Positions 14,207 through 34,358 of a DNA stretch of 46,793 nucleotides are shown here, one piece after another. The notes under the pieces were generated by a model. The model did not search any database and was not told the DNA's origin. It worked only from the letters and a program-made list of their open reading frames with translations. Both the position numbers and the translations under genes were made by a program. The DNA comes from a bacterium (GTDB taxonomy: Bacteria; Patescibacteriota; Minisyncoccia; Phycocordibacterales; SBAW01), in NCBI GenBank assembly GCA_021839985.1, contig JAKBZO010000003.1:1-46793 (forward strand). The letters run 5' to 3'. How positions within the stretch are numbered: the first letter of the stretch is position 1; each line of letters opens with the position of its first letter.

Positions 14207-14426
14207 TGTGACCCTACCGGGATTGTCCCAGAATCACGGGTCCTTTGTTCGCGCTCTGCGCTCCAAAGTGATCTCGTGTTCCTGGACGGCGCCTCGTATT
14301 TCCCTCGCTGTGATCGCTCGGAAAATATACTGCGGCGCTTCAAATCCCGACAGAAAGCGCGCAGGCGCTTTCTTGTAAGTTCACTCACAGAAAAACGGCG
14401 CTCATCGCGCTCATTTTTTCTGCGTG
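14207..14426 (-). repeat. tRNA-Glu-linked structured element (mirror copy plus direct copy of tRNA 3' end)
   Basis: 14207-14224 is identical to 14425-14442. An inverted tRNA 3' copy at 14339-14395 is interrupted by the hairpin AGAAAGCGC-GCAG-GCGCTTTCT (14352-14373). Confidence 0.8.
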
Positions 14427-14499
14427 TGACCCTACCGGGATTTGAACCCGGGTTACCGCCGTGAGAGGGCGATGTCCTAGACCACTAGACGATAGGGCC
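14427..14499 (-). tRNA. tRNA-Glu(CTC)
   Basis: GGCCCTA...TAGGGTC-A cloverleaf, anticodon loop CT-CTC-AC, T-loop TTCAAAT; CCA not encoded. Confidence 0.95.
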
Positions 14500-14500
14500 G

Positions 14501-14627
14501 CTATCGCGACCATATATTCGTTGCTCGCTCGGAAATCCGCACTGCGCTCGTCGGAATATGAAAACGAGTTTTCCATTCCTCCTCACTTGTGCTCACATTT
14601 CTCTCGCTTCGCTAGGATATAGGGCCG
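14501..14627 (-). repeat. Structured leader element starting with a copy of the tRNA-Glu 5' end
   Basis: ATAGGGCCG at 14619-14627 repeats 14492-14500. Minus-strand ends pair (CGGCCCTATAT/ATATATGGTCG); internal hairpins and AGCGAAGCGAG motif. Confidence 0.55.
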
Positions 14628-14705
14628 ATGAAAATAAAATAGCATAGAAAATTCCATTTGGAAAATCGTTTGTTTTATCGTAGTATTGAATTTGTTCGCA
14701 AATAC

Positions 14706-14833
14706 GGAGAGGTGGCTGAGTGGATGAAAAGCAAACTTCTTTGCTTTTCATCCGGTCCCGAGGCTTTGCGAGGGAAAACCCGTTGTTGAGCGAATGCGAA
14801 ACAGGGCTTAGGTGGACGAACTTGTTCGATCAC
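14706..14833 (+). repeat. Structured element starting with an 18-nt copy of the tRNA-Ser(CGA) 5' end
   Basis: GGAGAGGTGGCTGAGTGG at 14706-14723 equals 14895-14912; then perfect hairpin 14722-14753 and GAGCGAATGCGAA-type hairpin; no tRNA 3' half. Confidence 0.65.
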
Positions 14834-14894
14834 GGAGTTGAAGATCTTGCTATCTGTTCAGTGTGGCGCGCGGTTGGTACAATCACATAAACAT

Positions 14895-14984
14895 GGAGAG
14901 GTGGCTGAGTGGTCGAAGGCACCTGACTCGAAATCAGGCGTACTCGAAAGGGTACCGAGAGTTCGAATCTCTCCCTCTCCGCCA
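14895..14984 (+). tRNA. tRNA-Ser(CGA)
   Basis: GGAGAGG...CCTCTCC-G-CCA, anticodon loop CT-CGA-AA, long variable arm; extended -10 TGGTACAAT just upstream. Confidence 0.95.
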
Positions 14985-15025
14985 ACACAAAATAGCGCTT
15001 CCGGGCGCTTATTTTGTTGGTTGGT
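14982..15025 (+). terminator. Terminator hairpin after tRNA-Ser(CGA)
   Basis: CAAAATAGCGC-TTCCGG-GCGCTTATTTTG; nearly identical to the hairpin after tRNA-Ser(GGA). Confidence 0.7.
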
Positions 15026-15056
15026 GTATAGGACATCCGCCCTGTGGATAAGTATG

Positions 15057-15086
15057 TTGACGACTTGTCAATAAACTGGGGATAAT
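15057..15086 (+). promoter_or_regulatory. Sigma70-like promoter overlapped by TTGAC-N5-GTCAA palindrome
   Basis: TTGACG-18-GATAAT with TTGACgacttGTCAATAA; perfect DnaA box TGTGGATAA at 15043-15051. Confidence 0.5.
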
Positions 15087-15091
15087 TATCA

Positions 15092-15272
15092 TCAGACGCT
15101 CAAAAAACAGGGATTCGGTCAATATTGTGATGGTCTGTTGAAAAACAGCCGGCCGCAGGGGTGGTCAATAAAACGACGCCCCCATAACGTAGGCGAGAGC
15201 CGTAGACCAGAAGAACAGTTTTGGAAGGAAGGATGGGCGCCCCGTATTCAAAACCGAGGGCGCTATTCTTTT
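15092..15272 (+). ncRNA. Candidate small structured RNA 1
   Basis: Lies between the promoter and a GCGCCC/GGGCGC + U-tract terminator (15237-15272); several hairpins; no convincing ORF. Confidence 0.35.
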
Positions 15273-15344
15273 GCCTGGCAAGACCCGCCCACACGTCACC
15301 AACCCCTTTATTTACAACGTAAATCGTACTAAATCACTATAGAC

Positions 15345-15373
15345 TTGACATACCGTCAATAATCTGATAACGT
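15345..15373 (+). promoter_or_regulatory. Sigma70-like promoter overlapped by TTGAC-N5-GTCAA palindrome
   Basis: TTGACA-17-TAACGT with TTGACataccGTCAATAA. Confidence 0.6.
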
Positions 15374-15379
15374 TTAAAT

Positions 15380-15530
15380 AGGTAGCAACGACGGAAGAAG
15401 TAGATTCATCGTGAGGGTTCATAGGTGACCCGTTGAAGTCGATCGAAAGATGGCTTCCATAGATAGAATATCAACTCTTCCCCACTGAACATGCGGGCGC
15501 CAGCGGAATTCAAACGCGGCGCCCCTTTTG
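15380..15530 (+). ncRNA. Candidate small structured RNA 2
   Basis: GGAAGA(15393)/TCTTCC(15476) stem encloses two hairpins (one GAAA tetraloop), followed by GGGCGCC/GGCGCCC + T-tract terminator. Confidence 0.45.
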
Positions 15531-15622
15531 TTTGTATGCATGAACCTATACTTTTGGTCTTCTTGCTATCTGCCCGCGACTACGAGACACTTAAAGGAGT
15601 TGTTCTCGCTCAAGGAGGCATC

Positions 15623-15979
15623 ATGAGTCAAAATGTCCTGCAACATCTCGCTGCGGGCGTGACGGTGCGGATCACCTGCGACGGTACGGTCATCAGCACG
15701 ACGCAAAAGACAAAAGAGGGGCGACCTTTTAAGATAGTCTGCAAAAGGTCGATCGTCGATGAAGGGATGATCCGATACGTCGGATCACTCCCCCAACCTC
15801 GCATCAAGATACAAGTCTTTTCAGGACACTCCAAGGGTAACTTTGAATTCGTCTTCATTAGGTCAGACGATCTGGCACAGCGAGGGTGGCGCATGCTCCT
15901 GAAAGATTCAAATGGCGGGAAGGACCCCTGCTTCCGCATCAACTCCCCCACCTACCGGTTCGAAGTCATCGAGACGTGA
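15623..15979 (+). CDS. Orphan hypothetical protein (118 aa)
   Basis: Strong SD AAGGAGG before ATG 15623; terminator-like hairpin at about 15993-16020; no recognised family. Confidence 0.65.
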   Translation: MSQNVLQHLAAGVTVRITCDGTVISTTQKTKEGRPFKIVCKRSIVDEGMIRYVGSLPQPRIKIQVFSGHSKGNFEFVFIRSDDLAQRGWRMLLKDSNGGKDPCFRINSPTYRFEVIET

Positions 15980-16055
15980 ACCACCTCAGGTAACCGGCTG
16001 CTTCTCGCAGCCGGTTTTTCCTTGCTGCATATCGCGTGTATAGTATATGCACATC

Positions 16056-16532
16056 ATGCAGCCGATCGAGCTCATACTCATCCTCCACGATATCCGCAGC
16101 GTGCACAACGTCGGCTCGCTCTTTCGTACCGCCGACGGTGCTGGGGTCGCGCGCATCATACTCTCCGGCTGCACGCCGACGCCGATCGATCGGTTCGGCC
16201 GCGAGCGTCAGGACTTCGCTAAAGTATCGCTCGGCGCGGAAAAGACCATGCCGTGGTCGTATGCGAACAACGTCCACACTGAACTCGATAGACTCAAAGA
16301 AGATACCTATACGATAGCGGCACTTGAGCAAGACGCTCGATCGTCTTCCCTTCTGGGGTGGCGGCCAGAGAATGCTCGCGTTGCACTGATCCTTGGCAAT
16401 GAGGTGGGCGGTATCGCACCGGACCTGCTTGATCGCGCTGACGTCATTCTTGAGATCCCGATGTATGGCCTCAAAGAATCACTCAACGTCTCGGTCGTCG
16501 GCGGTATCGCGCTTTTTGGCATGAGATTCTAA
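16056..16532 (+). CDS. TrmH/SpoU-family RNA 2'-O-methyltransferase
   Basis: LHDIRSVHNVGSLFRTADG, LILGNEVGGI, IPMYGLKESLNVSV SPOUT motifs. Start 16056 preferred over 16047 because of the TATAGT -10 position. Confidence 0.9.
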   Translation: MQPIELILILHDIRSVHNVGSLFRTADGAGVARIILSGCTPTPIDRFGRERQDFAKVSLGAEKTMPWSYANNVHTELDRLKEDTYTIAALEQDARSSSLLGWRPENARVALILGNEVGGIAPDLLDRADVILEIPMYGLKESLNVSVVGGIALFGMRF

Positions 16533-16541
16533 AAAGATCGC

Positions 16542-16577
16542 AAACAAAAACCGCCCCTGACGAGCGGTTTTTGTTTT
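16542..16577. terminator. Bidirectional intrinsic terminator
   Basis: AAACAAAAACCGC-loop-GCGGTTTTTGTTT between convergent genes. Confidence 0.8.
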
Positions 16578-16595
16578 TCAACTCAGAGAGATGGA

Positions 16596-17405
16596 TTACT
16601 GCGTTGAGGTCGTGGCGGTCTCCTGCGTCGTCGTTGCTTCGCGAGCCGGCTTCGGAAGGGACTTGCGGATCGTGTCGATGTCTTTGCGCGCGGCATTGAG
16701 ATCGTGCTGCGCCGCAACGATCTTGCTGCGCGCATCTTTGAGCGCCGCGAGATTGGACTGCAAAATGGTCTTATCGCCATTGTCCGGCTGCAATCCTGAC
16801 ACTTCACTCTGTGCTGCCTGTGCTTGCGTCTGCGCATCGGCGACCTTTGTCTGGTAGTCAGCGAGCGCCGCCTCAGCCGCAGTCACATTCGCACCTGATG
16901 TGGATGCGTTGGTAATGAGCGTCTGAAGCTTGGTGCCAACGGTCTGCATCGCCTGAACCAGTCCGGTGATGCGGCTTGTCGCTGCCATGATATTCACCCT
17001 CGGCTCAAGAAGCGCATACGTTCGGAACGACTTGGTGATCGACTGAAGGTCGGTCTTGAGGGTCGTCGACGCGTCAGTGCCGATCTTACCTTTCAGATCG
17101 GAAAGTTCCTGGATCTGCGCCTGCACCTCACTGCCGAGGGTGTCTTTGGTGGTTGATGATATGCGCATCGACGCGATGCGCGTGTCGAAATTCTGGAGAG
17201 AAGTAAGACGATTATCGATCTCCTTGTTTGCCTGGTCCTGTTCCTTCGTCATGCGCAGCGCCGTAGTCGACGCTATGCGCGCCTGGATAGCTTCTGCGCG
17301 CGTTCGCGCATTCGCGCCTGACTCTTGAGCTAGAGCCGGAAGTGCAGCGCCACAAAGGATCGCGATCGCCGCAATACTGGAAATACGAGTTGCTATTTTG
17401 TTCAT
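16596..17405 (-). CDS. Secreted alpha-helical/coiled-coil protein (269 aa)
   Basis: Signal peptide MNKIATR...LPALA-QE, Ala/Gln/Thr-rich heptads; start placed at 17405. Confidence 0.75.
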   Translation of the reverse strand: MNKIATRISSIAAIAILCGAALPALAQESGANARTRAEAIQARIASTTALRMTKEQDQANKEIDNRLTSLQNFDTRIASMRISSTTKDTLGSEVQAQIQELSDLKGKIGTDASTTLKTDLQSITKSFRTYALLEPRVNIMAATSRITGLVQAMQTVGTKLQTLITNASTSGANVTAAEAALADYQTKVADAQTQAQAAQSEVSGLQPDNGDKTILQSNLAALKDARSKIVAAQHDLNAARKDIDTIRKSLPKPAREATTTQETATTSTQ

Positions 17406-17439
17406 GATGTCGTGCGTTAAGTTACGTCTGGTAATGATC

Positions 17440-17727
17440 TTACTGCTGAGCGGCTGCGCTCGTGACGCTCTGATCCACTGCTGATGCGTCTGAATTAAGA
17501 CCATTGAGTTGTGCGTCAATAGCCGCGGTGTCGGAATCAAGCGCTGCGCTCGACGTGTCGGTTGCCGCCGTCGAGAGGATCGGTTGTGCCGTCGCGCTCG
17601 ACTGCTGCACGCCGCCGTGATCGGCCTCGCGAACTCCACCCTGCTGCTTATCCCAAACGACCCACACCACACCAATGATCACGAGCACAATGACAACCCA
17701 CATGACCGTTTTATTGGCAGATGACAT
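17440..17727 (-). CDS. Small single-pass membrane protein (95 aa)
   Basis: MSSANKTVMWVVIVLVIIGVVWVVW TM, then low-complexity S/A/D/Q tail; co-oriented with the downstream secreted protein. Confidence 0.7.
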   Translation of the reverse strand: MSSANKTVMWVVIVLVIIGVVWVVWDKQQGGVREADHGGVQQSSATAQPILSTAATDTSSAALDSDTAAIDAQLNGLNSDASAVDQSVTSAAAQQ

Positions 17728-17872
17728 GTTATGAATGTAATTATTGGTAACTTCCGCTTCATTATACCTCGACCTGTGAACCGTCGATAACAGCATCCTG
17801 TGGACGGGTAGCACGTGGAATGAAAATACGGTATATTCTTAAATACGTTCGGTTCTTGTAGATATTTCATAT

Positions 17873-17945
17873 GCGCGGTTAGCTCAGTTGGTAGAGCATT
17901 CCCTTGACGTGGGAAGGGTCGCAGATTCGAGTTCTGCACCGCGCA
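17873..17945 (+). tRNA. tRNA-Val(GAC)
   Basis: GCGCGGT...ACCGCGC-A cloverleaf, anticodon loop TT-GAC-GT; T-stem closes with A-T instead of G-C. Confidence 0.93.
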
Positions 17946-18003
17946 CATTGCTTTTAAAAACCTCACAGCCGCAAACGATAAGCGACTGTGATATCATGAC
18001 GCC

Positions 18004-19092
18004 ATGCGCGTACTCGCCATTGAAACTTCCTGCGACGAGACCGGCGTCGCCATCCTTGAAGGCAGCTCCTTTGCCGACAGTTTTTCATTTACGGTCCTTG
18101 GCGAAGCATTGCTCTCGCAAGCGGAGCTTCATCGCGACTACGGCGGCGTGTATCCGACCCTCGCCAAGCGCGAACATGAAAAGAATCTTCCGGCCATTCT
18201 CGCCGAAGCGCTGAAGAAGGCAGGCATGAAAGAGCCTGCTGATGTCGACGCGATCGTCGTCACATCCGGACCCGGGCTTGAACCGGCGCTGTGGACCGGC
18301 ATCACGTTCGCGCAAGATCTTGCAAAGAAATGGAGGAAGCCGCTCTTTGCGTCTAATCATATGGAGGGTCACTTGGTCGCTTCGCTGGTGCAGGACGGGC
18401 TGCTCTCCGGCATATCCTTCCCTATTCTTGCGCTCCTCGTCTCCGGCGGGCACAGCGAGTTCGTTCGTGTTGATGATTGGTTCAAGTATTCGATCGTCGG
18501 ACAGACGCTCGACGACGCGGTCGGCGAATGTTTCGACAAAGTTGCGCGCATGCTCGGGCTTCAGTATCCAGGCGGACCGGAGATCTCGCGGCTTGCCAAG
18601 CACGCGCGCGACAACGATCTCCCGCAATCCACCGCGGCGCTCCCGCGCCCAATGATCCACACCGACAACTGCGACATCTCTTTCTCCGGACTCAAGACCG
18701 CGGCACTCTACGCGCTGCGCGACATGGGCGGCATCGAAACACTCTCGGAGAACGACAAGGCGGCGTTCGCGCGCGAGTTCGAAGATAGCGTTGCTGAAGT
18801 ATTCGTGCACAAAGCGCGCCGCGCGCTCGTGGAAACCGGAGCGAGCATGTTCGCACTCGGCGGCGGTGTGGCGGCAAACAAGCACCTGCGCGAAGCGCTC
18901 GCCGACGCGATCAAAAAAGATTTTCCCGATGTCGAGATCCGCGTACCAGATCCATCTATGACTGGTGACAATGCGATCATGATCGCGCAAGCAGCACTCT
19001 TACACCTCCTCATCGGCGGCTGGAAACTCGACCGCCCTCACGCCGACATAAAAGCAAACGGTAACCTCAGTCTAGAACCGTCAGATATCTAG
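18004..19092 (+). CDS. tsaD: tRNA N6-adenosine threonylcarbamoyltransferase TsaD
   Basis: LAIETSCDET, HMEGH, LVSGGHS, TLDDAVGECFDKVAR, SFSGLKT, GGGVAAN, DNAIMIA. Confidence 0.95.
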   Translation: MRVLAIETSCDETGVAILEGSSFADSFSFTVLGEALLSQAELHRDYGGVYPTLAKREHEKNLPAILAEALKKAGMKEPADVDAIVVTSGPGLEPALWTGITFAQDLAKKWRKPLFASNHMEGHLVASLVQDGLLSGISFPILALLVSGGHSEFVRVDDWFKYSIVGQTLDDAVGECFDKVARMLGLQYPGGPEISRLAKHARDNDLPQSTAALPRPMIHTDNCDISFSGLKTAALYALRDMGGIETLSENDKAAFAREFEDSVAEVFVHKARRALVETGASMFALGGGVAANKHLREALADAIKKDFPDVEIRVPDPSMTGDNAIMIAQAALLHLLIGGWKLDRPHADIKANGNLSLEPSDI

Positions 19093-19125
19093 CCAGGGCA
19101 TCGATCTTGGACTATAGTCTATGAT

Positions 19126-21276
19126 ATGGTCCCCGAAAAATTCCTTAAGCCGTACGATCCAGCCGCGACGGAGCCCTCTTTATATACACAGTGGGAGCAA
19201 AGCGGGTTTTTCAACCCTGACAAACTCCCCGACCAGATCGAGCGCACCGAGCCGTTCACGATCATCATGCCGCCGCCGAATGCCAACGGCTCACTCCATG
19301 CCGGCCATGCGCTTTTCGTCACGCTTCAAGACATTATGATCCGATTCGCGCGCATGCGCGGCAACAAGGCGCTCTGGCTTCCGGGCGCGGATCACGCCGG
19401 CTTCGAGACGCAGGTCGTGTATGAAAAGAAGCTGGAGAAAGAAGGTCGCTCGCGCTTCGAGATGGAGCCGCGGCAACTCTACAACGAGATCCTTGAGTTC
19501 ACGCTCGCCAACAAATCCTTCATGGAAGGACAGCTCCGCCAGCTCGGCGCATCGTGCGATTGGTCGCGCGAGCTTTTCACGCTCGATGAACGCGTTATCA
19601 AGACCGTATACGGAACATTCAAGAAACTCGGCGAAGACGGTCTCCTCTATCGCGGCAAACGCATCGTCAACTGGTGTCCGAAGCATCAGACCTCCCTTTC
19701 AAATCTCGAAACGATCTATCAGACGCGCACCGAGCCGTTCTACTATTTTCAGTACGGTCCGTTCGTGATCGGCACCTCGCGCCCCGAAACCAAGTTCGGC
19801 GACAAGTATGTCGTGATGCATCCTGATGATGAACGCTACGCGCAATATTCAGAGGGTCAGAAGATCGATCTTGAGTGGATAAACGGGCCGATCACCGCGA
19901 CCGTGCTCAAAGACGAAGCGATCGACATGTCCTTCGGTACCGGCGTCATGACCATCACCCCATGGCATGACGCGACCGACTTCGAGATCGCCAAACGTCA
20001 CACCCTGGATTACGAACAGATCATCGACTGGCGCGGCAAACTCCTTCCTGTCGCAGGCGAGTTCGCGGGCATGAACATCAAAGAAGCGCGCCCGAAGATG
20101 GTCGAGAAACTCAAAGAAAAGGGGCTTCTCGTGAAGATAGATGAAAAGTACACCCACGAAGTACCGGTATGCTACAAGTGCGAGCGCGAGATCGAGCCGC
20201 AGATCAAGGCGCAGTGGTTCGTGACGATGGAGCCGCTTGCGAAGAAAGCCCTTGCCGCCGTCGATGCGGGAGACGTGCGCATACTCACCGAAAACCACAA
20301 CAAGATCTTCCACAACTGGCTTGAGAACATCCAAGACTGGAACATATCTCGCCAGATCGTTTGGGGTATCCCGATACCAGCTAAGCTCTGCAGTAAGTGC
20401 GACGGGGGCTTTGTCGATATCGATGACACGATGCATGGTGTATGCCCGAAATGCGGCGGCAAGCTTGTGCAAGACCCTGACACCTTCGACACGTGGTTCT
20501 CATCCGGCCAGTGGCCGTTCGCAACCCTTGGCTATCCTGACTCACCCGATTTCAAGGAGTTCTACCCGACCTCGGTCATGGAAACAGCCGCTGATATTCT
20601 TTTCTTCTGGGTCGCGCGCATGATCATGCTCGGCCTCTACCGCACGGGCGACGTGCCCTTCAGAAACGTCTATCTCCACGGAATCGTGCGCGACGCCAAA
20701 GGCCGGAAGATGAGCAAGAGCAAAGGCAACGTGATCTCACCGCTTGAGGTCTCGAACGAATACGGTACCGACGCGCTGCGCATGGGACTCATCGTCGGCA
20801 ATACCGCCGGCACCGATATGAACCTTGACCCGCGCAAGATCGGTGCGTACAAAAAGTTCGCCAACAAGATCTGGAATATCGCGCGCTTCCTGCTTGAGAA
20901 TATCGATGAGATCGACATCACCGCACCTTTCACTGCGACCGACTCAGAGCGACGCGCCCAAATGCAAGCGATCGCACAGGACGTGACCGACGATCTCGAG
21001 AACTATCGTCCGTACCTCGCCGCCGAAAAGCTCTATCATTATCTGTGGGATGTCTTTGCAAGCGACCTTCTTGAAGAAAGCAAACCGATCTTCAAGACCG
21101 GCACGCCGGAAGAGGTTGCGTCTCGGAAGCGCCTTCTGATGCAAAACTTTGCCGATTCGCTCAAACTCCTTCATCCATTCATGCCGTTCGTCACTGAAGA
21201 GATCTGGCAGAGCCTGCCTGCGGTGCTCCGCACGCAAGACATGCTCATGGTCGAGCGTTGGCCGATCGTGAAATAG
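19126..21276 (+). CDS. valS: Valine--tRNA ligase (short, 716 aa)
   Basis: PPPNANGSLHAGH (HIGH), DWNISRQIVWG, DTFDTWFSS, FFWVARM, KMSKSKGN, LLHPFMPFVTEEIW. Confidence 0.95.
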   Translation: MVPEKFLKPYDPAATEPSLYTQWEQSGFFNPDKLPDQIERTEPFTIIMPPPNANGSLHAGHALFVTLQDIMIRFARMRGNKALWLPGADHAGFETQVVYEKKLEKEGRSRFEMEPRQLYNEILEFTLANKSFMEGQLRQLGASCDWSRELFTLDERVIKTVYGTFKKLGEDGLLYRGKRIVNWCPKHQTSLSNLETIYQTRTEPFYYFQYGPFVIGTSRPETKFGDKYVVMHPDDERYAQYSEGQKIDLEWINGPITATVLKDEAIDMSFGTGVMTITPWHDATDFEIAKRHTLDYEQIIDWRGKLLPVAGEFAGMNIKEARPKMVEKLKEKGLLVKIDEKYTHEVPVCYKCEREIEPQIKAQWFVTMEPLAKKALAAVDAGDVRILTENHNKIFHNWLENIQDWNISRQIVWGIPIPAKLCSKCDGGFVDIDDTMHGVCPKCGGKLVQDPDTFDTWFSSGQWPFATLGYPDSPDFKEFYPTSVMETAADILFFWVARMIMLGLYRTGDVPFRNVYLHGIVRDAKGRKMSKSKGNVISPLEVSNEYGTDALRMGLIVGNTAGTDMNLDPRKIGAYKKFANKIWNIARFLLENIDEIDITAPFTATDSERRAQMQAIAQDVTDDLENYRPYLAAEKLYHYLWDVFASDLLEESKPIFKTGTPEEVASRKRLLMQNFADSLKLLHPFMPFVTEEIWQSLPAVLRTQDMLMVERWPIVK

Positions 21277-21318
21277 ATGATCGAATAGACAGGTGTATTT
21301 CTGGGTTACAATGACTTC

Positions 21319-22005
21319 ATGGATTCTCTGCATTTGATCGGCTATTCCGTGATCGGCGGCTTTGTTCCCGCACTGATTTGGCTCGCCTTCTGGCTCACCG
21401 AAGACCGCTGTCAACCGGAACCGAAACTCCGTCTCCTCCTCACGTTCCTCGCAGGCATGGTCACCGTCGCGATCGCGATACCGCTTGAGAACGCGGCGTC
21501 TTCTTTTACGACAGGAGCTCCTCCGCTCTTGATATGGGCGAGTATCGAAGAGATCCTAAAACTTCTCGCCGCAGCGACCTTTGGCCTTCTTAGCGCGGAC
21601 TTCGACGAACCGATCGACGCGGTCATCTACATGATCACCGCAGCACTTGGTTTCGCCGCCGCTGAAAATATTCTTTTCTTGTTCGGCACCATGTACCAAG
21701 GTGACATACTGCAAGGTCTCATCCTTGGCGATACGCGCTTCGTGGGCGCGACGCTTCTTCACTCTCTGTCATCGGCGACGGTCGGTCTCTTTATGGCACT
21801 CGCATTCTATCGCAGCGCGACGATGAAGAAGATCGCGCTCGCCGCCGGAGTTATCCTCGCTATTTTCTTGCATACCCTCTTTAACTTTTTTATACTGGCA
21901 CAAGGAGGCAGTTTGGCGGTGTCCGTTTTCCTGTCCATATGGGCAGGCATCATCGTTCTGCTCTTTCTTCTGGAGCGTGTCAAAAACGCGAAAGATTACT
22001 GTTGA
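21319..22005 (+). CDS. prsW: PrsW-family intramembrane metalloprotease
   Basis: EP motif, IEEILK, LGFAAAEN, LLHS, FLHTLFN. Confidence 0.88.
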   Translation: MDSLHLIGYSVIGGFVPALIWLAFWLTEDRCQPEPKLRLLLTFLAGMVTVAIAIPLENAASSFTTGAPPLLIWASIEEILKLLAAATFGLLSADFDEPIDAVIYMITAALGFAAAENILFLFGTMYQGDILQGLILGDTRFVGATLLHSLSSATVGLFMALAFYRSATMKKIALAAGVILAIFLHTLFNFFILAQGGSLAVSVFLSIWAGIIVLLFLLERVKNAKDYC

Positions 22006-22055
22006 TGGTACCCCGTTTCTTTTCCTGACTACTAACCACTAATAATCAAACCTTC

Positions 22056-22580: not shown

Positions 22581-22618
22581 AGATTCGGTCACGCAAACAC
22601 CCCCTATTTCACTTTATA

Positions 22619-22830
22619 GCTCAGGGCCGGGCTCGGGGTCAAGTTTCTAAACTCATCGTTCGCGCTTCGCGCTCAAATTCGTTAAGAACTTCCTCCCCGG
22701 ACTCGCGGTCTTGTTCGCTGAAAAGCTCACAAGACAACGCTCCGTCTTTCGAGCCCGGACGGAATGTGCGCAGGCACATTCCTCCCTGAGCACAAATGTA
22801 AAGGCCGCTCTTAAGCGGCCTTTACATTTG
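22619..22830 (-). repeat. tRNA-Phe-linked structured element (mirror copy plus direct copy of tRNA 3' end)
   Basis: 22619-22635 is identical to 22832-22848. Inverted copy TTCGAGCCCGG (22748-22758) [GGAATGTGC-GCAG-GCACATTCC] CCCTGAGCACA; perfect 25-bp inverted repeat 22784-22808/22815-22839. Confidence 0.85.
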
Positions 22831-22903
22831 TGCTCAGGGCCGGGCTCGAACCGGCGACCCCCTCCTCTTCAGGGAGATGCTCTACCAACTGAGCTACCTG
22901 AGC
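22831..22903 (-). tRNA. tRNA-Phe(GAA)
   Basis: GCTCAGG...CCTGAGC-A cloverleaf, anticodon loop CT-GAA-GA (G37). Confidence 0.93.
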
Positions 22904-22943
22904 GTAGCAATAGAATAGCATGGAGACGCCTCTAACTCAACGA

Positions 22944-23761: not shown

Positions 23762-23833
23762 GCCTCGATAGTTCAATGGATAGAACAGCTCCGTCCTAAG
23801 GAGTAGATGTAGGTTCGATTCCTACTCGAGGCA
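23762..23833 (+). tRNA. tRNA-Arg(CCT)
   Basis: GCCTCGA...TCGAGGC-A, anticodon loop GT-CCT-AA, T-loop TTCGATT. Confidence 0.92.
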
Positions 23834-23887
23834 CAACGAGCGAAGCGAGTGTGTCTCGAGAGCATGCCAACTGCTTGGCTGGCATGC
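23834..23887 (+). repeat. tRNA-Arg-linked mirror element (short form)
   Basis: GAGCGAAGCGAG, then TGTGTCTCGAG (23850-23860, complementary to 23825-23835 with one G-U), then hairpin with CTGC loop (23871-23874). Confidence 0.7.
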
Positions 23888-23934
23888 GCCCTGCGTCTTT
23901 TCACCACGATCTACACGTTCTACGTACTTACACA

Positions 23935-26301: not shown

Positions 26302-26320
26302 ACAATGAGAGTGGTACGGA

Positions 26321-26444
26321 TGGATGCGGTGAAGATCGATGACATGCAAGGCGCGAGCGAGGAACGAACCGAGCCTTACCTAGACGTAAGGTGAGGGAGT
26401 ACCGGAGCTCGCAACACAGCAGGTCGCGATCTTCACCGCATCCA
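26321..26444 (+). repeat. 124-bp structured repeat, copy 2
   Basis: Perfect 18-bp terminal inverted repeat (26321-26338/26427-26444); same core and same length as 3920-4043. Confidence 0.8.
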
Positions 26445-26474
26445 CCACAAGACACTGTACGTTAAAAACGTCCT

Positions 26475-27725: not shown

Positions 27726-27740
27726 GGAAAGCTGAGGGAG

Positions 27741-29435
27741 CTAGATCGCTGATTCGATATCGGTCGGTTCGAGCGCGACGCGCTCAGTTCGCATGAAGCG
27801 TTGTCGCAAGGCTCTCCAGATCTCAGGGAGCTCTTCGTTGCCCAGCAGATGCAAGAGTACGGCAACCACTGCAAGACCGACAACGCCCGCCGCGAATCCT
27901 TGCGCAAAAACGCCGAACACTTTGTTCATATTCACGAATGTGCCCGTGAACGCCAGGACCCAATACGCAACCGTACCGCCGACGATCGAGGCGGAAAGAC
28001 TCTGGAACGTCAGCCGACCGATCCGAGCAAGCGGTATCGAAAAATCTTTGACGAAATAGATGAACGCGATGATCGCTTCAGCGGTGGAGCCAAGCGCATA
28101 GCCGAGCGCGAGCATGAGCACGGTCGTGCCGCCCGCAACGCTATCGACGCGCAGCAGCGACTCCACGAACATACGCACGAAAAGATATTTGTGGAAGAGA
28201 CCGGCGAGTGCGAGCGCCGAAGAGATCGATACGACAATGTCGGCGATACCGAAATACAGCGGCTTGCGCGAGTTCCCTGCCGCATAATACGCGCGCGAAA
28301 TGAGCAGTGTAAGATTTTGCGCGGCGAGCGAGATGATGAACAGCGCAAGCGCTGCCGCGGTGAGTTTGGTTGCGGTCCAATCGAACACGCCCGCGCCGAG
28401 AATGACACGCACCAGCTGTGCGCGCAGTACGATGACGAATATCGTCGCGGGGATCGACCAAAAAAGAATATGGCGTATGGCTGCTTCGATGTACGTGACC
28501 AGCGCGCCATTCTCACGCTTTGCGTAAAGCCGCGCCAGAGTCGGAAACGCCGCGACCGAATACGACACGCCGATGATCGTGAGCGGCACCGCCTGCAGGT
28601 TGTAGGCAAAGGAAAATATCGTGATCGAACCTTTGGCGAAGTACGACGCGATCGCCACAAGCGCGACCAGTGATATCTGTGTGCTCGCAAGAGCGAGCGT
28701 GCGTGGGATCGAAAGAGCGAGCACTTCGCGCAGATGCCGCAGTGCTTGCGAAAGCGGCATGCGCGTGCCCCTCGGCTCCTGCGCAAAAAATGGCACCTGG
28801 ATGAGTGCGTGGAGCGCGGCGCCGAGCACCACGCCGACGCCGAGACCCATGATCCCCATGTGCGGATACAATGCGACGATGCCAATGATGATGCCGATAT
28901 TGTAGAGGAGCGGACTGATCGAGTAGAGCAGGAATCGATGCCGCATCTGGGTGAGGTTGGCCAAGATATTCGAAGCGCCGAGCAAGATCGGCTGCAGCAA
29001 AAGAACGCGCGTCAGGAGCAAAAGCTGCGCATACTCCGGTGTTCCATGCACAAAACCAGGAGCGAGAAGCGCGAGGATCTGAGGCGCGAATACGAATACG
29101 ATACCGGAGATCAGGCCCATGCCAACAAAGAATAGCAGGAGCATCTGACGCATGAACGACATCATCGTGTTCTCGCTCTCCTCCTCAAGGCGCGAGAGCG
29201 TCGGCATGAGCGCGTACAGCGAGAGCAGCGACGCAACGGTCGCAAAAAGAAAATCCGGCACGCGGAACGCGGCGTAATAGATATCGAGCGTACTGCCGGC
29301 ACCGAACGTGCCCGCGAGAAGTCGATCGCGCACCAAAGCGAGCATCTGCGACAAGAACGCGAATATCGCTACAAGATACGCGGCCTCATGGAGACCGCGC
29401 ACTTCAAGCCCGACCACCGCGAACAAGCGACGCAT
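27741..29435 (-). CDS. murJ: Lipid II flippase MurJ (MviN)
   Basis: SQMLALVRDRLLA..FGAG..LDIYYAAFRVPD, SPLLYNIGII, SVAAFPTL, SRAYYA; start 29435. Confidence 0.9.
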   Translation of the reverse strand: MRRLFAVVGLEVRGLHEAAYLVAIFAFLSQMLALVRDRLLAGTFGAGSTLDIYYAAFRVPDFLFATVASLLSLYALMPTLSRLEEESENTMMSFMRQMLLLFFVGMGLISGIVFVFAPQILALLAPGFVHGTPEYAQLLLLTRVLLLQPILLGASNILANLTQMRHRFLLYSISPLLYNIGIIIGIVALYPHMGIMGLGVGVVLGAALHALIQVPFFAQEPRGTRMPLSQALRHLREVLALSIPRTLALASTQISLVALVAIASYFAKGSITIFSFAYNLQAVPLTIIGVSYSVAAFPTLARLYAKRENGALVTYIEAAIRHILFWSIPATIFVIVLRAQLVRVILGAGVFDWTATKLTAAALALFIISLAAQNLTLLISRAYYAAGNSRKPLYFGIADIVVSISSALALAGLFHKYLFVRMFVESLLRVDSVAGGTTVLMLALGYALGSTAEAIIAFIYFVKDFSIPLARIGRLTFQSLSASIVGGTVAYWVLAFTGTFVNMNKVFGVFAQGFAAGVVGLAVVAVLLHLLGNEELPEIWRALRQRFMRTERVALEPTDIESAI

Positions 29436-29476
29436 GCGTATAAGTATACGGGGGAAAGGAAAAAGTAGAAAGTCAT

Positions 29477-29519
29477 AAAAACCGCGCAGCTCCGCCAGTT
29501 GGCGGAGCTGCGCGGTTTT
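29477..29519 (-). terminator. Intrinsic terminator
   Basis: AAAACCGCGCAGCTCCGCCA-GT-TGGCGGAGCTGCGCGGTTTT inverted repeat. Confidence 0.75.
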
Positions 29520-29533
29520 ACTTCTCGTCCGAT

Positions 29534-31975
29534 CTACCTCGATAGCGGAGTGGCGCTGGCTGTCGCCGGCTTGATGTAACTCTTTGAACCAGCGAACGGG
29601 TCGATCCCCCACCGCATGTTCTGAAGAATATGCGCTACATCGGTATTGGTCGGATTATCATTTTGTATCTGAGTGAAAATAGTTATCGCGTCCTGCGCGC
29701 GTCCTTGCTTGTAATACGCAAGGCCAAGGAAGTATTTTGCGTTCGCATACGACGGAACGAGCGCCACCGCCTGTTCGAGTGCCGGGATCGCATTCTGCAT
29801 ATTCCCCGCTGAATAATTGAGCAGACCGAGTTCAAGCCATAGCGGCGCTTGGTCGGGGGCGGATTGCACCGCTGCCTCGATCGCTCGCGTTGCTTCCGGA
29901 AGATTGTTTTGGGCTACCTCAACTTGTTCGGCCAGCAAGAATGCGTCGGTGTAATTACTCTTGAGCTGAAGCGACTGAGTAATGAGCTTTTGCACCTCGT
30001 TCAAATTTCCTTTGAGATCATCCGTTGCCTCAAGACGCGCGAGAAGGAGCGGTAGAGTCGGATTGGTCGGATCACGCATGATCGCCTGCTGGTATGCTTG
30101 ATACGCACCATCATACGCGCCTTGTATCTTGAGCGGGTACAAGAACTCATAGATCCGCGCAAGGTCGACATACGGACGATAATCATTGACGCTCAGCTGT
30201 GCGGCCGTCTGTCCTTGCTGGATCGCGCTGACCAGTGTCTTCTGGAAGTTATTGCGGATCTCGGTAATATTGGACGGTGAGCTTGATGCTTCATTTGCCA
30301 ATTGCTGCAATTGTGCGAGGCTTATTTCAGCTCCCGTGCGCATGTTGTCGGTCGTGCGCTCAATGCCTTGAGATGCCGCGATGGCTTGTGCCGCTCCATC
30401 GACATCATTCTGAGAGACTGCATTCAATGCTAGGCCCTGATACGCAAGCGCCACGAACCGGCGGACCGCTAAGAACGCCGGAATGATCACCGCGATAATG
30501 ACAAGCACCATCAAAACCTTACCGACTGAACGGATCGGTTTGAGCTCAGACGCTCTCATGACATGCTGCGTTGAGACGAAGCCTGCAAGCGCACCGAAGA
30601 GCGCGAATGCCAACAGCACCATGCTCTGACTTGAAGAGTAGCCGGCCAACACCGCCCACACGAAAGCCGCCGCGATCCACAGTTCGATAATAAGAGATCG
30701 ATCGTCTGACTCCGATCCCAGCCAGGTGCGCCACACTCGCACGAACATAAGACAAAGCAGGAGGAGCGGAAGCGCCCACACGATAATACCAACGAAACCG
30801 ACCGAGACAAGGGCTGTCGACATGACACTGAAGCCGGTAACAAAGTCGACGCTCCAGAACTGCGTTGTGTTCACATCGACCGGTTTGAAGTGCAGCCAGG
30901 CAGTGCCGAACGTATTGGGTCCAGTGCCGAACAGAGTGTGCTGCATACTATCGCTCGTCGCACTGCGTGCAATATCATACGTGGTCGACATCGAAGGACG
31001 GACGTCGAGTGACGTCACCGACACCGTCGAAGGAAGTTTGGCACCGATCGTAGTGCCCCACATGATGAAGATCGCTGAAATAACGATCACACCATAGGCA
31101 TACCATGCCGCCTCAGGAACTGCCTCCGTTGAGACTGCGGCAACGCTCAAGGATGCTTTTTTCCATACTCGAGCACGGAAATATTTTATGAGTGCGATCA
31201 CGAATGCGCCAACACCTAAGAACCACCAGATCAGAGAGAAACCGATAACAACGAGGAGACCGAGAAGAAGCAGTGCGCCGATGAAGCAAGTGACCATACG
31301 CCACTTTTTCTGTTGTGATTTACCGAACTCTGCGCGCACGAGCATGAGCAGCACGACCAAAGCGACCGCCATACCGAGATCGTTCCACTTGCCAATGAGG
31401 TTGACGGTCTTATCCGAGAACACAGTATTTTGCCACAGAGTACTGCCGAATAAGATGTTCACATATTGGAATACTGCCGCCAGAGTGATCGCTGCTACCA
31501 CAAAGCGAAGTAGCGTTCGTGCACGCTCAGCCGAATGAACAAAGATAAGACCGAGCACGAACGCCACATATGCGATAACCATGAAGAACACGGTGTCAAC
31601 TTCGCTGCCCACTCCCATAAAGCCGAGATATCGGTCAGACGCTAAAGCGTAAGACACAAGATAGGCCAGAGGCAGAAGCCCGACGAGAGCGGCATACACG
31701 CGCGATGAGCGCAGCGGTTCGAATACCGGTGCGCCACAGAAGCGCGCCAATGCCAGAGAGACGACCGACAAAGCAATGCCGACCGCAACGATAGCAAGTT
31801 TCAAAGGCGCAAAGGGCATCCACGAAAAGGGCGTCGACGCAATGATCGCGAGCGCTATAGAAGCGACGAACACCACCCAGCCGATGCGCTCGAACATAAA
31901 AGCCCATCGCGCTTTTTTCTCTCCCGAAGAAGGAGTGTGCACGTGCGTCTCTACTGATGGTTCTGTTGGTGGCAT
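29534..31975 (-). CDS. O-antigen-ligase (Wzy_C)-like polytopic membrane protein with C-terminal TPR repeats
   Basis: About 12-13 TM, LFGTGPNTF periplasmic-loop motif, TPR repeats (ELGLLNY...ALEQAVALVPSYANAKYFLGLAYY). Confidence 0.75.
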   Translation of the reverse strand: MPPTEPSVETHVHTPSSGEKKARWAFMFERIGWVVFVASIALAIIASTPFSWMPFAPLKLAIVAVGIALSVVSLALARFCGAPVFEPLRSSRVYAALVGLLPLAYLVSYALASDRYLGFMGVGSEVDTVFFMVIAYVAFVLGLIFVHSAERARTLLRFVVAAITLAAVFQYVNILFGSTLWQNTVFSDKTVNLIGKWNDLGMAVALVVLLMLVRAEFGKSQQKKWRMVTCFIGALLLLGLLVVIGFSLIWWFLGVGAFVIALIKYFRARVWKKASLSVAAVSTEAVPEAAWYAYGVIVISAIFIMWGTTIGAKLPSTVSVTSLDVRPSMSTTYDIARSATSDSMQHTLFGTGPNTFGTAWLHFKPVDVNTTQFWSVDFVTGFSVMSTALVSVGFVGIIVWALPLLLLCLMFVRVWRTWLGSESDDRSLIIELWIAAAFVWAVLAGYSSSQSMVLLAFALFGALAGFVSTQHVMRASELKPIRSVGKVLMVLVIIAVIIPAFLAVRRFVALAYQGLALNAVSQNDVDGAAQAIAASQGIERTTDNMRTGAEISLAQLQQLANEASSSPSNITEIRNNFQKTLVSAIQQGQTAAQLSVNDYRPYVDLARIYEFLYPLKIQGAYDGAYQAYQQAIMRDPTNPTLPLLLARLEATDDLKGNLNEVQKLITQSLQLKSNYTDAFLLAEQVEVAQNNLPEATRAIEAAVQSAPDQAPLWLELGLLNYSAGNMQNAIPALEQAVALVPSYANAKYFLGLAYYKQGRAQDAITIFTQIQNDNPTNTDVAHILQNMRWGIDPFAGSKSYIKPATASATPLSR

Positions 31976-32117
31976 ATACCTAAAAATTAACTGATACGAA
32001 TGAAATCATTATAAACGAAAAACTAAAAATCAATACCGGTCATGTGTGAAGAGCGCACGTATAAATGTGCGCGAAAAAGAAAAGGTGCCGCTGTTCGCGA
32101 CACCTTTTCATACTGCT

Positions 32118-32591
32118 ATGCGCCGATAAGCCGAATTCTGTTGAAGCTGAAGCTTCATGACAACTATTTATCTGGGCGATGTGTCGCCACATCGCTCGAG
32201 CGGCACTCCCCGCGCGCAGCGCGCAAGTTGAAAGTTCATAAAGTTCAGAAGTTCATAAAGTCATGCAGCGCGTTCTTATCCTTACCGTAACCGCTGAGTT
32301 CTGCAACTTTACGAACTTTTTAACTTTACAAACTGCGCGCTACGCGCGGGGCACGGCCTTGCACTCAAGTAAGGGTTTTGCCGTTTCACCTCTCGTGTTA
32401 CCACAAGAGCTATTCCCGAAGGAATCCGAGAACCTTTCGGACTCGGCGTCTCTGCTCGCACCTCTGCCGCGGCAGTCGCGGCGACAGGCGTTACCTGCTA
32501 CTCCTGCGATATCCGAAGACATCGCTGAGTGTTCGGACTTTCCTCCCCATCACTACCCTATAGACAATGACAGAGCAGTTGTCTGGCGCAC
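32118..32591 (-). ncRNA. rnpB: RNase P RNA
   Basis: Minus strand contains GAGGAAAGTCCGAAC, GGTGAAACGGCAAAACCC and ACAGAATTCGGCTTAT; ends pair (GTGCGCC/GGCGCAT). Confidence 0.95.
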
Positions 32592-32619
32592 GAAAACATT
32601 GTGCCATACCATTATGAAG

Positions 32620-32660
32620 AAGGCAAGGGCGCGCGGGCTTCGCCCGCGCGCCCTTGCCTT
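32620..32660. terminator. GC-rich palindrome/terminator between aox and rnpB
   Basis: AAGGCAAGGGCGCGCGGGC-TTC-GCCCGCGCGCCCTTGCCTT. Confidence 0.7.
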
Positions 32661-32679
32661 ATGTCTCCCATTTCGATCT

Positions 32680-33372
32680 CTACGCCTTGAACTGATGGAT
32701 CGACGTATTGCGATGGATGATCTCGTCATTGCGCACCGACATGAAGAAATCGTACTGGTCGATCGGATTGCGGCCGTACCAATTCAGATACTCACTCTCT
32801 ACTTTTCTGCGCTTGAGCACTTCCCCGCGCAGTTTCAAGAAGAGCGAGTACTGATCGAACGCATGCTGCTCGAACATATAATTGAGTTCGAACGACCACC
32901 TCGAGTTGATGAGGTACAGGAAGTAGGACATCCAGAAATAGAAGAATGCGAACAGGAGCGGGATGATCGTGTGGCGGATCACGCCAGCTTTTTCTTCGCG
33001 GCGCGTCAACTCCGATATGACAACCACGTGCATGGTCTCGTTGTCGCGAGCGAAGCGAGCGAACTCGGAGGTCTTGGAGAATCGCAGTGCGCGATCCGCG
33101 TCGGTATAGAACATGGTGAGCAGCGTGAACGACGCCGACTCCCACGAATGATACGGCACGCGCGCGATCACTTCGACGGCGCGAAATTTCAGATACGATG
33201 GAGTGCGGCCGTACACAAAGTTGCCGCACACCACCAGCAACTTACCGAGCAAGCGCGGCAAAAGCGACACGCGATAGGTATCGAGCGGTTTCTTATACGT
33301 CTCGAGGGTCTCCGGATCATTCAACTGCGCGACCAGTGTTTCGTATTCTCGATCATCGCCTGATATCTTCAT
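32680..33372 (-). CDS. Alternative oxidase (AOX/PTOX-like di-iron quinol oxidase)
   Basis: AVEVIARVPY, DNETMH, LNYMFEQHAFDQY, RNDEIIH give the E / ExxH / E / ExxH di-iron ligand pattern. Confidence 0.85.
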   Translation of the reverse strand: MKISGDDREYETLVAQLNDPETLETYKKPLDTYRVSLLPRLLGKLLVVCGNFVYGRTPSYLKFRAVEVIARVPYHSWESASFTLLTMFYTDADRALRFSKTSEFARFARDNETMHVVVISELTRREEKAGVIRHTIIPLLFAFFYFWMSYFLYLINSRWSFELNYMFEQHAFDQYSLFLKLRGEVLKRRKVESEYLNWYGRNPIDQYDFFMSVRNDEIIHRNTSIHQFKA

Positions 33373-33426
33373 GGTAAAGATTTAATAACTAGTGCTTTTA
33401 GTATACTAGAGTATACTGCTTTCACT

Positions 33427-34197
33427 ATGACCGTACGCACAAAAACTGCAAAAAGGCGAGCGCCAGCGCCCAAAAAAGACGCCGACGTCTTCCCCATGCG
33501 CATCAACAAATATCTGGCGCTCCAGAATTACGCCACCCGCCGCGGCGCCGATGAGCTCATCGAAAAAGGGTTCGTCACGATAAACGGCAAGAGGGCAAAG
33601 CTCGGCGACATCGTGCATGAGAAAGATGAAGTCGCGGTAAAGAGCAGCGCACCGAAAAAGAATTACGTGTACTTCGCGTACAACAAACCGCGCGGCATCG
33701 TCACCCACGGCGCACAAGGGCACGAAGAAGAGATCGGCGAAGTGGTGGAGAAAGTACCGGAGCTGCGCGGCACCTTCCCGGTCGGGCGGCTCGACAAAGA
33801 CTCGCACGGACTCATCATTCTCACCAACGACGGACGCGTCACCGACCGACTCCTCAATCCGAAATTCGATCACGACAAAGAGTACGAGGTTATGGTGCAT
33901 AAACCGCTACGCAACAATTTCAAAGAGCGCATGGAGAGCGGCGTGAACATCGAAGGATACCTGACGAAAGAATGCCATGTCGACGTGGTCGGTGCCATGA
34001 AATTCCGCGTCACGCTCCATGAGGGCAAACGACATCAGATCCGCCGCATGGTCGCCGCGCTCTACAATACCGTCGCCGACATCAAGCGCGTACGCGTTCT
34101 CAACATCAAGCTCGGCAAGACGCCCTCAGGCGGCTTCGCCGCGATCAAAGGCGACGACCTCAAGATCTTTTTACAGAAGCTCGGGTTGGAGAGGTAG
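33427..34197 (+). CDS. rRNA pseudouridine synthase, RsuA/RluB/RluF family
   Basis: S4 domain RINKYLA...RRGADELI, YNKPRG, VGRLDKDSHGL, EGKRHQIRRM. Confidence 0.93.
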   Translation: MTVRTKTAKRRAPAPKKDADVFPMRINKYLALQNYATRRGADELIEKGFVTINGKRAKLGDIVHEKDEVAVKSSAPKKNYVYFAYNKPRGIVTHGAQGHEEEIGEVVEKVPELRGTFPVGRLDKDSHGLIILTNDGRVTDRLLNPKFDHDKEYEVMVHKPLRNNFKERMESGVNIEGYLTKECHVDVVGAMKFRVTLHEGKRHQIRRMVAALYNTVADIKRVRVLNIKLGKTPSGGFAAIKGDDLKIFLQKLGLER

Positions 34198-34200
34198 GGG

Positions 34201-34270
34201 TCGGTGAGTAAAGCAGTTCGCTCGCTCGTCTCCGCCAACAAAATATGCGCCCGAAGGCGCTATTTTTTGT
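34201..34270 (-). repeat. tRNA-Ser(GGA)-linked mirror element (short form)
   Basis: CGTCTCCGCCAACAAAA (34227-34243) is the inverted copy of 34265-34281, preceded by hairpin GTGAGTAAA-GCAG-TTCGCTCGC. Confidence 0.7.
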
Positions 34271-34358
34271 TGGCGGAGACGGCGAGATTCGAACTCGCGA
34301 GAGGTTTCCCCCTACTCGCTTTCCAAGCGAGCGCACTCGACCGCTATGCGACGTCTCC
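34271..34358 (-). tRNA. tRNA-Ser(GGA)
   Basis: GGAGACG...CGTCTCC-G-CCA, anticodon loop TT-GGA-AA, long variable arm. Confidence 0.95.

Follow-up and report, generated by a model that had tools for sequence, protein, structure and literature searches.

What are the sequences that lie downstream of several tRNA genes in the 46,793-nt stretch of DNA analysed here (the window; contig JAKBZO010000003.1, contig C2 of genome G000), and how does each come to match the tRNA beside it? Seven tRNA genes were called in the window with ARAGORN and Rfam. Behind those for tRNA-Glu(CTC), tRNA-Phe, tRNA-Arg(CCT) and tRNA-Ser(GGA) lies a non-coding element containing an inverted copy of all or part of the 3' end of that same tRNA gene. 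The elements are read here, with roughly even confidence, as an undescribed class of small, non-coding, non-autonomous integrative elements that occupy tRNA and tmRNA 3' ends in one Parcubacteria order (Paceibacteria). They are insertions bounded by a duplication of the tRNA tail. Their cores are structured in the tRNA-sense strand and related to one another independently of tRNA identity, their arms are copies of the local gene, and the newest copy lies next to the tRNA.

Layout and copied arms

Read in the tRNA sense, the Glu and Phe elements had the same order of parts (Table 1). First came H1, a hairpin whose outer arms are A-rich and T-rich; it was followed by an inverted repeat (IR), the reverse complement of about 20 nt at the gene 3' end. 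The IR was split by a 9-bp branch hairpin with a CUGC loop and was followed by a core of about 112 nt comprising two hairpins. The element ended in a direct copy (DR2) of the gene tail (DR1). DR1 and DR2 were exact 17-mers, 218 bp apart at Glu and 213 bp apart at Phe. This is the mirror layout that an earlier note on this DNA had described for the two genes, down to the CTGC-loop hairpin within the IR. The note had also reported elements at Arg(CCT) and Ser(GGA); both were present with the left part only, comprising a hairpin, the first half of the IR and the branch hairpin. A plain intrinsic terminator was rejected as an explanation: H1 is terminator-like, but IR, core and DR2 then follow.

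The arms were compared in 42 elements from 13 genomes (five weak rows dropped, 686 aligned positions). Tail, IR complement and DR2 were identical at 607 of the 686 positions. DR2 alone deviated from the tail at 41 positions, IR alone at 36, and both agreed against the tRNA at 1. Arms that are uncompensated to this degree (1 vs 77 positions) are independent copies of the gene tail and not a maintained helix, and an IR:DR2 helix under selection was therefore found to be unsupported. The mismatches of the IR showed no wobble bias (10 sense wobble, 13 antisense wobble, 18 other). The earlier idea of a non-coding system whose arms track the tRNA thus extends to the 42 elements. Its further suggestion of built-in target complementarity is accurate as a description, but the arms are plain gene copies that decay independently and do not form a co-evolving helix.

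Identity of the IR to the tail was highest in the T-arm part (0.93-0.97) and dropped toward the tRNA end. Where the tRNA itself contains a G·U pair or a mismatch, the IR exactly complemented the tail in 39 of 44 cases and copied the 5' strand in 4, some T-arms possibly being mis-parsed in this comparison. At G3·U70 of tRNA-Ala the IR had A opposite U70, giving A-U. A degenerate tandem tRNA copy or tRNA-like gene was excluded because the IR complements the tail and does not copy the 5' strand (39/44). A CCA end was present in DR2 only at genes that encode CCA themselves, so that copying from mature tRNA is excluded. Priming by mature tRNA, by analogy with a primer-binding site, or an origin from tRNA-primed cDNA was rejected on the same ground and because RVT_1 had no match in the genome. 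Most tRNA genes of G000 end in discriminator-C-A (typically ...CAC|A) with CCA not encoded; the full CCA was present in only four or five.

The whole of G000 (736 kb, 38 contigs, GC about 0.56, 94.6% complete) was searched with ARAGORN, and each tail was compared with its own downstream sequence. The final tally was made by hand reading of 48 genes, comprising 47 credible tRNAs and the tmRNA, after a doubtful ARAGORN call (C32:4245-4340) had been dropped. Elements were present at 28 of the 48 (22 full, 3 truncated and 3 displaced by islands), were about 130-220 bp in size and did not code for protein. The displaced elements belonged to Met, Glu(TTC) and Asn and lay 6-15 kb from the gene, beyond an inserted island. 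With a fixed threshold, requiring at least 12/14 matches to the 14-nt variable part of the tail in the sequence 100-300 nt downstream, 14 of 48 cognate genes scored, as did 23 of 2256 non-cognate pairs, mostly neighbouring tRNA genes or near-identical isoacceptor tails; recurrence of the tail is thus beyond chance. In a BLAST search of all downstream regions against the genome, element-like sequence was found only behind tRNA or tmRNA tails or in displaced copies. The target repeat was always the tRNA tail, 13-21 nt long, and the IR spanned the last 17-21 nt of the gene. Tandem arrays were present at Tyr, Glu(TTC) and Ala(TGC), and the element at tRNA-His was atypical. tRNAs lacking an element had a hairpin alone downstream. 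A simple scan for promoters and terminators gave no excess and was uninformative. The tmRNA gene (C4:21824-22205, minus strand, tag ANSVTSPYFSAQEFAFARA) is likewise followed by a family-A element, whose arms match the tRNA-like 3' end of the gene.

Core families and the folding strand

At least three core families were distinguished: A, which includes the window copies and has the CUGC hairpin; B, which has no branch hairpin; and C. The loop of the branch hairpin was CTGC in 12 of 20 elements scored, on stems unrelated to one another. For family B, 24 copies were aligned, 9 from G000 and 15 from 11 other genomes. Compensatory change was present in 20 of the 28 predicted pairs. Paired cells amounted to 96.7%, against 79.1% in column shuffles, and none of 500 shuffles reached the observed value; double-change cells numbered 125, against 38.6 in the shuffles. 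When partners were slid by 1-3 columns as a control, 30-39% of cells were paired. In family A, including the window Glu and Phe elements, 14 of 17 predicted pairs showed compensatory change (13 sequences, rough alignment). The core helices thus show strong covariation.

The folding strand could also be identified. In the tRNA-sense strand the family-B core pairs comprised 43 G·T or T·G against 8 A·C or C·A, and one G·U was kept in 17 of 24 copies. The earlier note had placed a G-U excess among the sense-strand mismatches of the arms; it lies instead in the core helices. Several helices contained tandem G·A pairs (GAGC...GCGA), which are impossible on the complementary strand, and the fold of the whole element was more stable in the tRNA sense in 13 of 14 elements. 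Covariation, G·T bias, G·A pairs and sense stability together indicate that the tRNA-sense strand folds. The folding form of this strand is RNA or single-stranded DNA, the data being compatible with both.

Relatives were sought with a family-B core query in 401 genomes of the order. Matches were obtained in 24, including G000 itself, 12 that matched only in the tRNA-Ser tail part, and G271, an unpublished genome on which no conclusion depends. The core was present in 11 of the 400 other genomes, belonging to several families, at 73-91% identity. In a sample of 400 genomes of the phylum, containing few members of the order, no core match was obtained. An exact-motif scan of one genome per species gave 28 loci, in records titled Candidatus Kaiserbacteria, Adlerbacteria, Nomurabacteria, Yonathbacteria and Paceibacterota/Parcubacteria, and in metagenome-assembled genomes labelled Saccharibacteria. 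The same family-B core stood behind at least 17 tRNA species in 12 genomes, with arms matching each; in the relatives it was found behind differing tRNAs (Arg, Leu, Val, Asp, Ser, Gly and others), again with arms matching the local tRNA. In G215, a genome of another family assembled as a single contig (GC 0.44), the thresholds flagged 16 of 44 tRNAs, and 12 of these reached the level set for a full element.

Viral contigs were scanned with motifs of both families. The family-B motif gave 0 matches and the family-A motif 4, three of which were unrelated coding sequence. The fourth was IMGVR_UViG_3300033463_005745, a record whose end holds two tandem family-A elements with the arms of one tRNA tail. 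It contained no tRNA in the terminal 3.3 kb and no Resolvase match anywhere in the record, and may represent a prophage boundary in a Parcubacteria genome.

Insertion, turnover and islands

Filled and empty alleles were found both between species and within the genome. In G002, of the same genus, a complete family-B element sits between tRNA-Arg(CCT) and the truncated element seen in the window; the truncated element is conserved in G002 and in the window lies directly 3' of the tRNA. At tRNA-Phe, G002 has a different core followed by a remnant of the window Phe element, and at tRNA-Asp it has a new element followed by the core of the Asp element known from G000. In the comparison of orthologous tRNAs, proposed earlier, G002 and G000 thus differ in their elements at Arg, Phe and Asp. 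Within G000, tRNA-Ala(TGC) on C23 is filled and its paralogue on C26 is empty. Homology of the flanks begins directly after the tRNA, which makes H1 part of the insert; H1 as native flank copied by fold-back was rejected because empty alleles lack it. The two Ala regions (C23:1-3300 and C26:9900-12640, including the tRNA gene) are about 85% identical and represent either real paralogy or a second strain in the bin.

In tandem arrays the intact, newest copy adjoins the tRNA, and older copies have lost the palindromic centre (DR2 + H1 + IR). Mean core identity was 0.779 for copies in the same genome at different tRNAs (n = 41), 0.770 in different genomes at the same tRNA (n = 4) and 0.722 for the rest (n = 231), and the closest relative of a core was usually at another tRNA. 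Relatedness of the cores is thus independent of tRNA identity and, together with the filled and empty alleles and the tandem arrays, points to insertion with retargeting. Copies within one genome were 75-92% alike.

Five large serine recombinase genes were found in G000, four of which adjoin a tRNA 3' end or lie near one. The contigs contain both ends of three islands (C10:20900-32470, C18:9850-24800 and C37:15922-21780), which are inserted exactly at the 3' ends of tRNA-Asn, tRNA-Met and tRNA-Glu(TTC), respectively. In each, the recombinase open reading frame points to the tRNA end and the far end of the island abuts an older mini-element, so that all three lie between a tRNA and an element. 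This arrangement indicates shared use of the site and is not proof that these enzymes move the elements. It also indicates that integration beside the tRNA is not prevented, and an earlier proposal that the elements act as a shield or decoy found no support. The Asn island is bounded by a 16-nt repeat of the tail. The right ends of the islands are loosely like the right end of family A (TTAGNAAC...GACC), and the left ends lack H1 and IR. The long open reading frames of the C18 island (396-968 aa) were taken, from their size and order, to encode a type I restriction-modification system.

Candidate enzymes were sought by six-frame Pfam searches of G000. No match was obtained to RVT_1, DEDD_Tnp_IS110 (PF01548), the TnpB zinc ribbon or Cas1. 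All Resolvase and Y1_Tnp matches were on contigs other than the window, which contains no recombinase gene, in agreement with the earlier remark that no integrase is adjacent. Phage_integrase (Xer-type) had no six-frame match in this 94.6%-complete genome. One or two copies of it were present in 5 of 5 element-bearing relatives, probably Xer-like from their size and copy number, and the gene of G000 is for this reason probably in the unassembled part. An IS200-type TnpA gene (C30:14159-14401) is cut by the contig end, with no TnpB. A RAYT-like Y1 (HUH) transposase gene is present as a single copy (C5:26453-27076; locus L062:1501-2124), flanked on both sides by its own REPIN-type ACAAGGGGCACCCTTGT palindromes (L062:1325-1375, 1465-1490 and 2135-2185). 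RAYT homologues, frequently multicopy, were found in 221 of the 401 genomes of the order and in 10 of the 11 core-positive genomes; at that overall frequency their co-occurrence is not diagnostic. RAYT was rejected as a partner on this ground and because its own REPINs are unrelated to the tRNA elements.

The ends of the window (1-115 and 46667-46793) are examples of overlaps between contig ends; most contig ends of G000 overlap exactly by 97-127 nt. Two multi-copy repeats interrupt the assembly, at seven places each.

Table 1. Features of the four tRNA-associated elements of the window
Feature	Position	Strand	Called with
tRNA-Glu(CTC) gene; target tail DR1 is the last 17 nt, 14426-14442	14426..14499	-	ARAGORN, Rfam
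Glu H1 hairpin, terminator-like, A-rich and T-rich arms	14386..14424	-	
Glu IR part 1, complement of acceptor 3' strand	14375..14385	-	
Glu branch hairpin, CUGC loop	14351..14374	-	
Glu IR part 2, complement of T-stem 3' strand and T-loop	14339..14350	-	
Glu family-A core, two hairpins with GAGC...GCGA apices	14225..14338	-	
Glu DR2, exact direct copy of the tail	14208..14224	-	
tRNA-Phe gene; DR1 tail 22832-22848	22830..22903	-	ARAGORN, Rfam
Phe H1 hairpin	22794..22829	-	
Phe IR part 1	22784..22793	-	
Phe branch hairpin, CUGC loop	22759..22783	-	
Phe IR part 2	22748..22758	-	
Phe family-A core	22636..22747	-	
Phe DR2	22619..22635	-	
tRNA-Arg(CCT) gene	23762..23834	+	ARAGORN, Rfam
Arg truncated old element: mini-hairpin 23837-23849, IR part 1 23851-23860, branch hairpin 23861-23888	23837..23888	+	
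tRNA-Ser(GGA) gene	34271..34358	-	ARAGORN, Rfam
Ser(GGA) truncated element: H1 34238-34270, IR part 1 34227-34237, decayed branch hairpin 34203-34226	34203..34270	-	

Possible mechanism, rival explanations and known systems

A scheme for integration can be drawn from the layout. In a unit-length single strand comprising tail, H1, IR and core, the tail would pair with the IR. Folded in this way, the strand would contain a double-stranded replica of its target, with H1 closing one side and the core the other. This folded single strand, as single-stranded DNA or as read-through RNA, may be the form recognised by an enzyme acting in trans. Exchange within the tail would insert the unit next to the tRNA, regenerate the tRNA end and leave a second copy of the tail; it would yield the observed order of tail, H1, IR, core and tail with the tRNA kept intact. 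When a core moves to another tRNA, both arms would be rewritten from the new target. Candidate routes are repair of a heteroduplex formed with the target, correction of the palindrome templated by the hairpin, and a polymerase switching templates at TTCGAA, the palindrome in the T-loop. A circular or folded intermediate, a strand-exchange chemistry and an enzyme would all be needed. In its fullest form the scheme amounts to self-retargeting, nucleic-acid-guided integration, in which a strand of about 200 nt (RNA or single-stranded DNA) pairs with both strands of the tail, a host or island enzyme inserts it and the guide arms are rewritten for each target, with no recombinase gene of its own. 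This form, in which the elements would be natural insertion modules that can be programmed, is tentative.

Among the three readings offered by the earlier note, a tRNA-targeting mobile element is the best supported, by filled and empty alleles, tandem accretion and cores that are patchily distributed across families at 85-91% identity. Several points nevertheless weigh against integrative elements. The searches of G000 linked no enzyme to them. No near-identical pair of cores was found among the copies compared, which speaks against recent activity; the best other copy in its genus to the G002 Arg(CCT) element was 77% identical. Differences in presence and absence could be losses through recombination between the direct repeats and not gains, and concerted evolution of ancient resident elements could imitate retargeting. 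No joint skipping an element and no circle junction was seen in 4 DNA runs from one study, for which assembled contigs only were used, making the result uninformative either way. No simple known reaction rewrites the inverted and the direct arm together. A host function is also compatible with the conserved structure and with the likely co-transcription with tRNAs.

That last point leads to a different explanation, in which the elements would be host-useful RNA modules, co-transcribed with the tRNA and spread by duplication and gene conversion instead of transposition. IR and DR2 would form a minihelix like the acceptor and T-arm, with the branch hairpin at the place from which a real tRNA extends its D and anticodon arms; the minihelix would direct processing of the RNase P or RNase Z type, act in stabilising or terminating the precursor, or give rise to a stable small RNA. 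The sense-strand fold with G·U and tandem G·A pairs, the conservation of cores across families with compensatory change and the age of the copies (75-92% alike) are all consistent with this, as is a branch hairpin lying within one base pair of the acceptor/T-stem junction. Transcription is also pertinent: in the Cys-Leu(TAG)-Lys cluster the Cys element ends about 9 nt before the next tRNA, a gap too short for a promoter, so that this tRNA must be transcribed through the element. A search of sequencing runs gave no RNA run covering the region. Nevertheless, species within one genus differ in the presence of elements, as do paralogous loci; 20 of the 48 genes lack an element, and older copies are truncated and decaying. 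The IR:DR2 helix is uncompensated, with mismatches lacking wobble bias, and G3·U70 of tRNA-Ala becomes A-U in it. In addition, pairing of the IR extends to the discriminator and the base next to it, an unfavourable arrangement for RNase P. An RNA function of this kind is accordingly considered unlikely, if deserving of attention. The earlier note's read-through RNA controlling 3' processing fares similarly, read-through being likely in at least one tRNA operon and control of processing conjectural.

The islands suggest another origin. The elements might be cis-mobilisable satellites of large-serine-recombinase islands using the same tRNA ends, moved by the island recombinases as the cis-mobilisable elements (CIMEs) of integrative and conjugative elements and the ccr-less staphylococcal cassette chromosome (SCC) cassettes are, or they might be what remains of such islands. 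The recombinase genes beside tRNA 3' ends, the 16-nt tail repeat around the Asn island, the loose right-end likeness to family A and tandem accretion resembling CIME and SCC arrays argue for this, as do the 3 of 3 islands that abut a mini-element. With 28 of 48 genes occupied, though, the last coincidence arises by chance about one time in five, and the right-end likeness may reflect decayed older elements. Serine integrases read specific sequences but the elements occupy 28 different tails, island left ends lack H1 and IR, attachment sites have no counterpart of the conserved folded core, and the IMG/VR record with tandem family-A copies has no Resolvase match. A satellite or remnant origin is thus judged improbable. 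It is highly improbable that there is no unit at all and that the sequences are by-products of palindrome-driven template switching at tRNA terminators together with old integration remnants. Tail, H1 and IR do form one long palindrome, the T-loop TTCGAA is palindromic and internal palindromes are deleted in arrays; but the same cores reappear behind different tRNAs in genomes belonging to different families, with their loops conserved and compensatory changes present, and H1 is absent from empty alleles and so was brought in with the element. The conserved cores largely refute this explanation.

Integrative elements at tRNA ends were also compared with known systems. Rfam 15 at the gathering score gave the 7 tRNAs only in the window, and in E-value mode at 16 element loci only tRNA, tmRNA and chance-level matches far below gathering, in line with the earlier view that no named family is involved. 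No description of such elements was found in the literature, including a term search in PMC11602168; the material consisted mostly of listings and the beginnings of abstracts, with subscription journals thinly covered, and a prior description is possible.

Miniature inverted-repeat transposable elements were rejected. The element ends (the A-rich H1 arm and the 3' strand of the final core hairpin) do not form inverted copies of one another, and the inverted repeat is internal and mirrors the target; the repeat is 13-21 nt and always a tRNA tail, not a short fixed duplication, and the G000 searches gave no autonomous relative. Repetitive extragenic palindromes of the REP/REPIN-RAYT type were rejected since the RAYT palindromes ACAAGGGGCACCCTTGT are unrelated to the tRNA elements. 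Integron cassettes with attC sites were rejected because G000 has no Phage_integrase match and the arms are tRNA tails, not RYYYAAC...GTTRRRY. An IS110 bridge-RNA element was rejected because the genome has no PF01548 match.

Partial likenesses remain. The order IR-core-DR2 is that of the integron attC site, in which a variable folded centre lies between an inverse core site and a core site that matches the insertion point exactly; attC is active as a folded single strand, and integron arrays grow at one site with the newest unit adjacent. The attC core is, however, a fixed 7 nt, whereas the repeat of the elements is 17-21 nt and target-specific; the elements carry no cargo beyond a hairpin and are found at tRNA ends and not at attI, and no integron integrase was found in G000. 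In CTXphi and other integrative mobile elements exploiting Xer (IMEX), two inverted target copies on one strand fold into a duplex replica, attP mimicking dif; these are phages that use XerCD at one fixed dif site, whereas the elements are about 200 nt long and use dozens of tRNA tails. The IS200/IS605 family, with palindrome-associated (PATE) and REPIN derivatives mobilised by Y1 HUH enzymes, shares strand-specific single-strand hairpins, internal guides that pair with flanking target and small non-autonomous derivatives, and G000 encodes an IS200-type TnpA and a RAYT. IS200/IS605 guides are, in contrast, fixed and 4-5 nt long and cause no target duplication, whereas the elements make a long one; TnpA lies at a contig end with no TnpB, and the G000 RAYT has its own unrelated REPINs.

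The bridge RNA or seekRNA of IS110/IS1111 is likewise a structured non-coding RNA of about 150-200 nt with target-matching segments, reprogrammable in principle; it differs in lying beside a DEDD recombinase, not found in G000, in having no long direct repeat and in a guide that is fixed for each element. tRNA-targeting islands, CIMEs and tycheposon-type arrays share insertion at tRNA or tmRNA 3' ends, duplication of the tail, tandem accretion and decaying older copies, but have no inverted copy of the tail and no conserved folded core and are not tailored to many tRNAs. In the comparison with CIME-like island remnants, right ends shared the loose motif and left ends did not, and 3/3 islands abutted an element. 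What appears to be without precedent is that both arms vary from copy to copy to match the local tRNA while cores move between specificities.

In genomes of 0.6-0.8 Mb, about half of the tRNA genes are occupied by these elements, which probably lie inside tRNA precursors and mark entry sites of serine-recombinase islands. They are relevant to tRNA expression, genome plasticity and annotation in the candidate phyla radiation. Should they instead be host RNAs, they would form a large unknown family of tRNA-linked structured RNAs. If they are mobile, they would be the first known case of small elements in which each individual target is mirrored over its full length, the mirror changing from target to target. 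Mobility would imply templated reprogramming of target specificity, which bears on the origin of bridge-RNA-like and attC-like systems and could prove adaptable.

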